Shown piece by piece: positions 45,190 to 46,850 of a DNA stretch of 64,000 bases (within the stretch, counting starts at the first letter, position 1; each line of letters opens with the position of its first letter). Both the position numbers and the translations under genes were made by a program. The DNA lies in NCBI GenBank assembly GCA_027450205.1, contig DAIDJL010000004.1, forward strand, positions 75,932 through 139,931, read 5' to 3'. This DNA is from Candidatus Parcubacteria bacterium (GTDB taxonomy: Bacteria; Patescibacteriota; Minisyncoccia; UBA6257; 2-01-FULL-56-20). The notes under the pieces were generated by a model. It saw nothing but the letters and a program-made list of their open reading frames with translations. It made no database searches and was not told the origin of the DNA.

Positions 45190-46740
45190 TATCAGAGGAT
45201 TTGATCCTGGTCCAGGATGAATGCTGGCGGTGTGGATAAGGCATGCAAGTCGAGCGGAATATATTTTGAAGAAGTTGCGATTACATCAAGACGACGGATT
45301 TATATATTTAGCGGCGAACGAGTTAGTAACACCCTGGTACGTACCTCGAAGACGGGGATAGCTCGCCGAAAGGCGAGGTAATACCCGATATTGTCGAAAG
45401 ACGAAAGCCGCAAGGCGCTTTGAGATCGGCCTAGGTCCGATCAGCTAGTTGGTAAGGTAACGGCTTACCAAGGCTATGACCGGTAGGGGAGGTGAGAGCC
45501 TGACCCCCAACGACGAGACTGAGACACGGCTCGTACTCCTACGGGAGGCAGCAGTCGAGAATATTCCACAATGGACGAAAGTCTGATGGAGCGACACCGC
45601 GTGCAGGAAGAAGGCCTTCGGGTTGTAAACTGCGGTAGTATGGGAGGAATGCAAATGACTGTACCATACGGAAAGAGGTGGGTAACTACGTGCCAGCACC
45701 AGCGGTAATACGTAGACCTCAAGCATTATCCGGATTTATTGGGCGTAAAGAGCATGTAGGAGGTTTCGCGCGTCTTTTGTTAAAGCCCAGGGCCTAACCC
45801 TGGAAGTGCAGGAGATACGGCGGAACTAGAGGAGGTTAGAGGTGCATGGAACTCACGGTGTAGGGGTGAAATCCGTTGATATCGTGGGGAACACCAAAGG
45901 CGAAGGCAGTGCACTGGGACCTTCCTGACTCTGAGATGCGAAAGCGTGGGGAGCAAAAAGGATTAGATACCCTTGTAGTCCACGCCCTAAACGATGCCTG
46001 TTTGCTGTTTCGAGTATCGACCCTCGGAGTGGCGTAGCTAACGCGTTAAACAGGCCGCCTGGGAAGTACGGCCGCAAGGCTAAAACTCAAAGGAATAGAC
46101 GGGGACTCGCACAAGCGGTGGAACATGAGGTTTAATTCGTCAGTAAGCGAGGAACCTTACCAAGGTTAGAAATCTATAATGACAGCCGGTGGAAACATTG
46201 GCCTTCTCACAAGGACATTATGGACAGGTGCTGCATGGTTGTCGTCAGCTCGTGCTTTGAAGTGTTCCCTTAAGTGGGGTAACGAGCGCAACCCCTATTA
46301 CGCGTTACATGTGTCGCGTGAAACTGCCCCGCCCAAAGATGAGAATTATATGTGCTGTGTAGGCATGCATAATTATCGTTTTCGGGCGGGGAGGAAGGAG
46401 GGGATGACGTCAAATCCGCATGGCCCTTTGATACCTTGGGCTACACTCGTGTTACAATGGTCGGGACAATGGGTTGCCAACCCGCAAGGGGGAGCTAATC
46501 CCATCAAACCCGGCCCCAGTTCGGATTGGAGGCTGAAACCTGCCTCCATGAAGCCGGAATCGCTAGTAATCGCAGATCAGCCACGCTGCGGTGAATACGT
46601 TCTCGAGTCCTGTACTCACTGCCCGTCAAGCCAAGGGAGCCGGTAATAGGTGAAATCTCGCTTCGGTGGGATAAACTTAAGATCGGTAACATGGGCTAAG
46701 TCGTAACAAGGCACGCGTAGCGGAAGCTGTGCGTGGATCA
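45190..46740 (+). rRNA. rrs: 16S ribosomal RNA (3' end reads ...GTGCGTGGATCA then ATTAAAC; no CCTCCTT)
   Basis: 5' AGAGGATTTGATCCTGGTCCAGGATGAATGCTGGCGG; internal GTGCCAGCACCAGCGGTAATAC, GGATTAGATACCC, GTCGTAACAAGG; flanked by processing-stem arms 45081-45095 / 46836-46850. Confidence 0.85.
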
Positions 46741-46835
46741 ATTAAACTACTATTTGGATAAATAGTAACAGTCGAACTTTCTTCTCTTTGGCCGGCGATC
46801 GATCGCAGGCGAAAGCGAGGGAGGTAATTGGGACA

Positions 46836-46850
46836 ACTAAAAAGCTCTTT
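46836..46850 (+). other. 3' arm (aattgggacaactaa) of 16S precursor processing stem pairing with 45081-45095 (ttagttgtcccaatt)
   Basis: exact 15-bp complementarity across the 16S gene. Confidence 0.7.

Follow-up and report, generated by a model that had tools for sequence, protein, structure and literature searches.

Loss of the anti-Shine-Dalgarno sequence at the 16S rRNA 3' end

We analyzed a window of 64,000 nucleotides (nt) from a Candidatus Parcubacteria bacterium (assembly GCA_027450205.1, contig DAIDJL010000004.1, positions 75,932 to 139,931 of the forward strand; coordinates below are those of the window), which carries a 16S ribosomal RNA (rRNA) gene that ends without an anti-Shine-Dalgarno (anti-SD) sequence. 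The evidence strongly favors the interpretation that loss of the anti-SD is an inherited feature of this lineage and that translation of its housekeeping genes does not depend on Shine-Dalgarno (SD) motifs.

The 16S rRNA gene (45189-46748, + strand) aligns with the Rfam SSU_rRNA_bacteria model (RF00177) over the whole model (1370.6 bits, model positions 1-1533). Helix 45 (46712-46734), composed of CACGCGUAGC, the loop GGAA and GCUGUGCGU, and the conserved GGAUCA that follows it (46735-46740) are both normal in this alignment; together (46712-46740, + strand) they align with standard pairs at model positions ~1497-1525, and they are identical across all relatives compared. The final eight model positions, CCUCCUUu, are aligned onto AUUAAACU, and the gene continues with the 9-nt tail AUUAAACUA (46741-46749, + strand) in place of CCUCCUUA. 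This short, A/U-rich tail is unable to pair with GGAGG and is unpaired in the precursor fold; it presumably forms the single-stranded 3' terminus, and the mature 16S 3' end would lie near it. A motif search revealed no CCTCC on the + strand between 46543 and 49106, and hence none from GGATCA to the processing stem described below. The first-pass annotation of this DNA, which had claimed that the 16S 3' end lacks an anti-SD and had proposed an alignment against small-subunit models, is confirmed on this central point by the Rfam alignment, in which AUUAAACU replaces CCUCCUUu, and by the CCTCC search.

Conservation of the tail in independent assemblies

Because rRNA genes are frequently misassembled in metagenome bins, and this 16S gene is not followed by a 23S gene, the 3' end might be a collapsed, truncated or misjoined assembly or binning artefact masking a true gene with a normal anti-SD. 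Homologs of the neighboring L19 gene (86-95% identity) were found on contigs of other ENA, JGI and NCBI samples, where the gene order of the relatives reads RF1, response regulator, (L31), 16S, response regulator, L19. The junction GGATCAATTAAACTA is present in 7 of 7 aligned sequences, comprising the window and six further contigs from other samples, and is followed in the relatives by a hairpin that differs between them in both length and sequence, behind which lies an invariant trailer block of ~80 nt (46772-46852) that includes the 3' arm of the processing stem. The nine bases of the tail are invariant among the close relatives and in at least about 16 further species, while the sequence directly after them varies freely. 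Since the identical junction and trailer recur in independent contigs, together with the stem and the flanking genes, misassembly, which the first-pass annotation had asked to be checked, is excluded as far as independent assemblies can exclude it; with the stem bracketing the gene exactly and the tail occurring in at least about 20 GTDB species representatives, we give the artefact virtually no credence.

The stem between leader and trailer encloses the 16S gene exactly. Its 5' arm (45073-45095, + strand) spans 23 nt and is 96% complementary to the 3' arm AAUUGGGACAACUAAAAAGCUCU (46826-46848, + strand), and the two arms are paired in the cofold. The sequence UUGGGRCAACUAAAAAGCUCUUU at the 3' arm is kept in many species of the AUUAAACUA tail class. 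A perfect pairing of 45081-45095 with 46836-46850 had been annotated earlier: the stem is real and 45081-45095 does pair, but with 46826-46840, the 3' arm having been placed ~10 nt too far downstream.

The nearest proteins to those of the window carry the names Minisyncoccia or Paceibacterota (L19) and Liptonbacteria or Paceibacterota (a DHH-family protein), as given by the sources, and genomes sharing helix 45 and the tail are titled, for instance, Liptonbacteria and Paceibacterota. The organism is most probably a member of the Parcubacteria (Paceibacteria/Minisyncoccia, Patescibacteria).

Distribution of anti-SD loss and graded tails

To delimit the distribution of the trait, one genome per GTDB species was searched with the pattern GTCGTAACAAGG-N10-GGAA-N9-GGATCA and any base except C after it, and the 120 matches listed were taken as an arbitrary sample. 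Approximately 105 of these 120 are Patescibacteria, mostly of Parcubacteria lineages. The AUUAAACUA tail with the helix 45 sequence CACGCGUAGCGGAAGCUGUGCGU is found in at least roughly 20 species representatives among the matches listed, and at least ~80 further Patescibacteria among them present other A/U-rich tails without CCUCC. The tails of these other anti-SD-less Parcubacteria differ from the one described here (e.g. UUUAUUU and AUUCCAAUUUGG). The matches listed include the cultured Minisyncoccus archaeiphilus PMX.108, with the tail UUUAUUUAUAUUUUG, as well as Candidatus Microsyncoccus archaeolyticus. About ten others among them harbor UCUCCUUUCU, a one-base variant that is still anti-SD-like, and belong to the Verrucomicrobia, gammaproteobacterial bins, Roizmanbacteria and a few bins labelled as Patescibacteria (e.g. 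Azambacteria).

A scan across metagenomes for this helix 45 with GGATCAC behind it yielded 33 contigs (L130-L162), all from other lineages. Their tails are CCUCCUUUC (13 contigs), CCUCAUUUU (2), CUACA or CUACU (14), CAACAUUU (3) and CUUAAAUUU (1). Lineages sharing this helix 45 hence present a graded series that runs through CCUCCUUUC, CCUCAUUUU, CUACAUUU, CAACAUUU and CUUAAAUUU to AUUAAACUA in the window. We read these grades as possible stages of a progressive erosion of the anti-SD, and their distribution suggests that it may have decayed gradually or repeatedly within the Patescibacteria.

The same scan bears on the possibility that an anti-SD is supplied from elsewhere, either by a second rrn copy carrying CCUCC or by a downstream exon joined through splicing. 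Introns do occur in the 16S genes of this lineage, as illustrated by a LAGLIDADG insertion in the relative L007, but none is located at the 3' end, and such a supply would make sense of the SD-like motifs that are found in accessory genes (see below). No version of this 16S gene bearing an anti-SD was recovered, as none of the 33 GGATCAC contigs presents the helix 44 flank of the clade, although the clade itself is present in the scanned metagenomes (L002, L003, L008 and L170). The precursor is devoid of CCTCC from GGATCA up to the stem in both the window and its close relatives, which makes the spliced exon envisaged by the first-pass annotation very unlikely; furthermore, the trailer folds as ordinary spacer helices and the core genes lack SD motifs. 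Candidate-phyla genomes were reportedly found by Brown et al. in 2015 to carry generally a single set of rRNA genes, which speaks against a second rrn copy, and we infer that the genome has only one. Overall, an anti-SD supplied from elsewhere appears very unlikely.

Absence of SD enrichment upstream of core genes

To assess SD usage, we took the first ATG of long open reading frames (ORFs) as the start and scored the 18 nt upstream as a duplex with ACCUCCUUA. The method recovers a clear signal in a 49-kb region of Escherichia coli used as positive control (n = 54), with a mean of -4.98 kcal/mol against -2.18 in the coding control, and 43% versus 5% of genes at -6 kcal/mol or below. The core genes of the window (n = 54) present a mean of -2.04 kcal/mol against -2.81 in the coding control, with 13% reaching -6 kcal/mol in both sets, and species with ATTAA-class tails (n = 199 genes) yield -1.54 against -2.57 kcal/mol, with 8% versus 11% at or below that value. 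A second comparison with coding controls led to the same picture. The E. coli region was substituted as control for loci with the one-base variant (TCTCCTTTCT; Verrucomicrobia and others), whose signal proved too weak.

Complementarity to the canonical anti-SD was also compared with composition-matched shuffles for 198 genes, drawn from the window and from 21 species with its tail (AUUAAAC), and no excess was detected (P = 0.15). Core genes of the window and of its tail-sharing relatives are therefore without SD enrichment. The first-pass annotation had reported core genes without a recognizable SD and had proposed a free-energy scan with the canonical anti-SD as against the actual tail; neither sequence reveals enrichment in core genes, and what needs amending is that SD-like motifs do exist in the window, where they are concentrated in accessory genes.

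The same 198 genes address the idea that AUUAAACUA has taken over the role of the anti-SD by pairing with a novel A/U-rich ribosome-binding motif resembling UAGUUUAAU. The strict conservation of the 9-nt tail next to a variable trailer does imply some constraint on it. Pairing of the tail with upstream regions, however, is no better than in shuffles (P = 0.58) or coding controls (P = 0.43), no k-mer complementary to the tail is enriched upstream of these genes, and the tails of other anti-SD-less Parcubacteria differ; moreover, in the organisms surveyed by Amin et al., a variant anti-SD was never matched by a variant SD (PMC6107228). A replacement anti-SD is thus highly improbable.

Similarly, the anti-SD could have been relocated, if the mature 16S were to run through the first trailer hairpin and the tract CUUUCUUCUCUUU (46778-46790) paired by wobble. 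The invariance in close relatives of the 80-nt block at 46772-46852 behind a variable hairpin would fit such a function, the YYUYY windows of the tract could pair with GGAGG through G-U pairs, and SD-like motifs are available in accessory genes. The trailer folds into a first hairpin (46748-46767, + strand), which varies in sequence and length among relatives, and a second helix (46776-46825, + strand), identified by complementarity and folding, in which the pyrimidine tract CUUUCUUCUCUUUGG (46778-46792) pairs with CGAAAGCGAGGGAGGU and which includes the SD-like GAGGGAGGU (46816-46824) on its other strand. The tract thus forms the 5' side of this helix, opposite GAGGGAGGU, and its pairing is maintained by two compensatory pairs in the relative L097. 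Across the alignment, 87% of cells are paired, versus at most 59% in slid registers, in what is a weak, low-power test on only six sequences. L125, L069, L064 and others having the same tail lack the helix entirely, and the tract has no upstream complementarity beyond shuffles (P = 0.59 in the 198 genes). This element is best described as a putative spacer helix of the precursor, not a relocated anti-SD, and we regard relocation as exceedingly improbable.

Predicted leaderless starts and the context of start codons

The 6-mers most enriched between positions -22 and -3 of the 198 genes are TTATAA (13 instances) and TATAAT (12), versus 2 far upstream; a -10 box is the sole motif enriched shortly before the start codons. 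In the window, TANWAT followed after 5-9 nt by an ATG that opens an ORF of at least 80 amino acids occurs at 14 sites, versus 2-9 at other spacings. Most of these sites fit the extended -10 pattern TGnTAnAAT (8984, 34917, 46870, 50352, 51621, 37099(-), 40289(-) and 17887(-)), with related boxes at 5536, 61661 and 5303(-). One of them, TGCTAGAAT (46854-46872 up to and including the ATG, + strand), stands 7 nt before the ATG of the response-regulator gene that follows the rRNA trailer directly, where it predicts a leaderless start, and most relatives have a -10-like box at a similarly short distance from the ATG of this gene. Boxes at this spacing indicate that the corresponding messenger RNAs (mRNAs) are probably leaderless, with the boxes acting as their putative promoters. 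The earlier claim that several core genes are leaderless thus gains support.

The gene rpsP illustrates how such starts can be missed. Its longest ORF (5380-5913) begins 52 codons before the likely leaderless start at 5536, behind a chance GGAGG. The match of this ORF to the Pfam S16 domain starts at residue 60, exactly where TTGTATAAT-N7-ATG (5536) is located; the apparent SD upstream of rpsP is hence due to a miscalled start. Across genes, A makes up 28-43% of positions -1 to -15, versus 23% genome-wide, and G 6-31%, mostly below its genome-wide 29%. Among same-strand neighbors, several overlap by 4 nt or stand 1-15 nt apart.

Taken with the loss of the anti-SD, these features outline the likely routes of initiation in this genome. 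With the 16S rRNA continuing after helix 45 and GGAUCA as the A/U-rich AUUAAACUA, no pairing with GGAGG would take place. The first genes of transcription units would be read from mRNAs that begin at or next to the start codon, as set by extended -10 promoters 5-9 nt before the ATG. Internal genes would be preceded by short, A-rich, G-poor and presumably unstructured spacers, and some of them, which overlap the upstream stop codon, may be translationally coupled.

SD-like motifs in accessory genes

A set of observations weighs against SD-independent translation. Gene starts were assigned crudely, as the first ATG of the longest ORF, and a minority of genes do present strong SD-like motifs at canonical spacing, such as those at 34323 (TAAGGAGG), 50257(-) (AGGAGG) and 21123 (AGGAGG), as well as ORFs of a cassette array next to the RNase P RNA gene. 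In the four relatives L168-L171, SD-like sequences (-6 kcal/mol or below) precede 12 of 28 genes lacking a Pfam assignment (43%) but only 7 of 55 genes with one (13%; Fisher P = 0.0046), with examples such as AAGGAGGTGATCA-ATG (L170, 19081) and AAAAAGGAGGTGATCA-ATG. We know of no use for SD motifs in a cell without an anti-SD.

The cassette array is adjacent to the RNase P RNA gene rnpB (25374-25839, + strand), which matches the full class A model (RF00010) with 70.8 bits (E = 1.8e-21) and was missed by the standard Rfam scan because its score lies below the gathering score of 100. The rnpB 3' end, GCTTAYGGATTGCCAGC, is present in five copies (25820, 26224, 28204, 29629 and 31421; array 25814-31440). 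Alongside the copies lie hairpins resembling terminators (GGGCGCACC...GGTGCGCCC), promoter-like sites and small ORFs; Pfam scans assigned nothing in the cassette ORFs to a family except one NUDIX fragment. SD-like motifs ahead of several of these ORFs comprise GAGGTGAGG (26326), GGAGAA (28324), AGGAGG (28977), GGAGGG (30152) and GAGGAGG (30940). The region has a lower G+C content and atypical codon usage, and its SD statistics resemble those of E. coli (mean -5.60 kcal/mol; 4 of 9 at -6 kcal/mol or below). Relatives with the same upstream gene order carry 1, 1, 3 and 1 copies of the GCTTAYGGATTGCCAGC repeat and differ in the genes downstream; one of them, L170, presents a related cassette array downstream of rnpB (12903-13800). 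No integrase was seen at the array, and a scan of viral contigs for the 17-mer of the rnpB 3' end yielded 5 matches, all in unrelated coding sequence, for ~7 expected by chance according to our own estimate. The array looks like a putative product of serial site-specific insertion or an integron-like array.

The simplest account of these genes, and one that we find more likely than functional SD motifs, is that they may be part of a mobile gene pool in circulation among relatives or hosts whose 16S rRNA retains an anti-SD, as it does in about half of Parcubacteria. Alternatively, the motifs could be functional and recognized by a small subset of ribosomes, by some other RNA or by a protein instead of the canonical 16S tail. 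This second reading is viable because SD-like motifs reach an E. coli-like frequency in genes without Pfam matches and stand at canonical spacing, yet we judge it unlikely. SD-independent translation of housekeeping genes after inherited loss of the anti-SD remains the preferred interpretation.

Relation to known systems

The loss of the anti-SD in Parcubacteria is already published. Tsurumaki, Saito, Tomita and Kanai (RNA 2022; PMC9297842) reported that only 48% of Parcubacteria have CCTCCT at the 3' terminus of their 16S rRNA, noted that lineages without the motif overlap the group lacking uL1, and inferred that no SD helices form there (PMC9297842). The window belongs to the same group and exhibits the same trait, with a complete small-subunit gene, intact helix 45 and GGAUCA, and no CCUCC(U) tail. 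Their work provides one survey statistic and the link to uL1, and does not deal with replacement tails, SD statistics, leaderless promoters or SD-bearing accessory genes. Full-text literature searches brought up no publication dealing with leaderless genes or the use of SD motifs in Patescibacteria, and the conserved AUUAAACUA tail, the leaderless architecture with extended -10 boxes, the graded tails and the contrast between core and accessory genes were not found in the literature searched.

Outside this group, Lim et al. (2012) and Amin et al. (2018) identified 15 and 128 other taxa without CCUCC, respectively (PMC6107228), including some Flavobacteriia (Chryseobacterium, Elizabethkingia, Blattabacterium), Mycoplasma, Carsonella and Hodgkinia; these taxa generally also lack SD motifs, and none has a compensating new motif (PMC6107228). 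They resemble the window in having no anti-SD, no SD enrichment and no new complementary motif, but they belong to other phyla and consist of scattered genera and endosymbionts, in contrast to the very large free-living or episymbiotic radiation considered here. In the Bacteroidota, as in Flavobacterium johnsoniae (PMC6847099), mRNAs also lack SD motifs, and their upstream regions are, as in the window, A-rich, G-poor and presumably unstructured. There the two systems part: the Bacteroidota keep the anti-SD in their 16S rRNA, whereas the 16S of the window lacks the sequence itself. The Bacteroidota anti-SD is said, in work by Jha et al. in 2021, to be retained but sequestered on the ribosome. 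Organisms rich in leaderless genes (Actinobacteria, Deinococcus, many archaea and mitochondria) share with the window a -10 element close to the start codon of many operon-first genes (14 sites with a spacing of 5-9 nt in the window), a distance at which transcription would begin at the start codon or beside it. The leaderless-rich bacteria nonetheless keep the anti-SD and use SD motifs for leadered genes, whereas the window has no anti-SD, and its leaderless starts are predictions made from sequence.

Pairing of SD and anti-SD is textbook bacterial initiation, and a large radiation without the rRNA half of it indicates that the pairing is dispensable. In practical terms, gene finders with SD-based scoring will assign wrong starts in such genomes, as in rpsP. 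The case adds little beyond the published loss itself, and its value is that of a documented example with a conserved tail, leaderless promoters and a core/accessory contrast. The cultured M. archaeiphilus, with a tail of this type, constitutes a candidate test system.

Gene neighborhood and further features of the 16S gene

The 16S gene lies between response-regulator genes and near rpmE and rplS, in a layout kept in relatives (45189-47578 in the window). The genes that follow it, instead of a 23S gene, are the response-regulator gene (46870-47247), encoding a Response_reg domain, and rplS (47276-47578). A strong promoter-like site for the 16S precursor (44987-45014, + strand), composed of TTGACA, a 16-nt spacer and TACAAT, with TG before the -10 hexamer and 11 of 12 consensus matches, precedes the 5' arm of the stem by ~60 nt. 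No rplK-rplA region turned up among the genes of the window that were examined.

The release-factor gene at 42730-43458(-) encodes an RF1-type protein, with PKT and GGQ motifs, of only 242 amino acids and without the N-terminal domain 1; RF1-type proteins of 241-242 amino acids are also present in relatives. The programmed frameshift of E. coli prfB relies on an internal SD, and a comparable frameshift was considered for this gene and rejected, as neither an upstream frame nor a CTTTGA site was found. Being of RF1 type and without this site, the gene has no bearing on the anti-SD question.

Several 16S genes examined here contain insertions. In the relative L007, an intron encoding a LAGLIDADG endonuclease is inserted after GTACTCAC (L007, 1-1000). 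Nine of the metagenome contigs with GGATCAC (L135, L137, L141, L151, L153, L156 and L158-L160) carry, where helix 44 would be expected, an unrelated sequence that ends in ...ACATGAACAA just before GG and helix 45 and looks like another insertion. The 16S gene of the window itself has a 37-nt insertion near its 5' end in the Rfam alignment (45260-45306) and a further insertion of ~60 nt in the 3' domain, placed by eye at about 46330-46390. Its 515-530 region is atypical (GTGCCAGCACCAGCGGTAATAC, 45693-45714), and common 515F primers would mismatch there.

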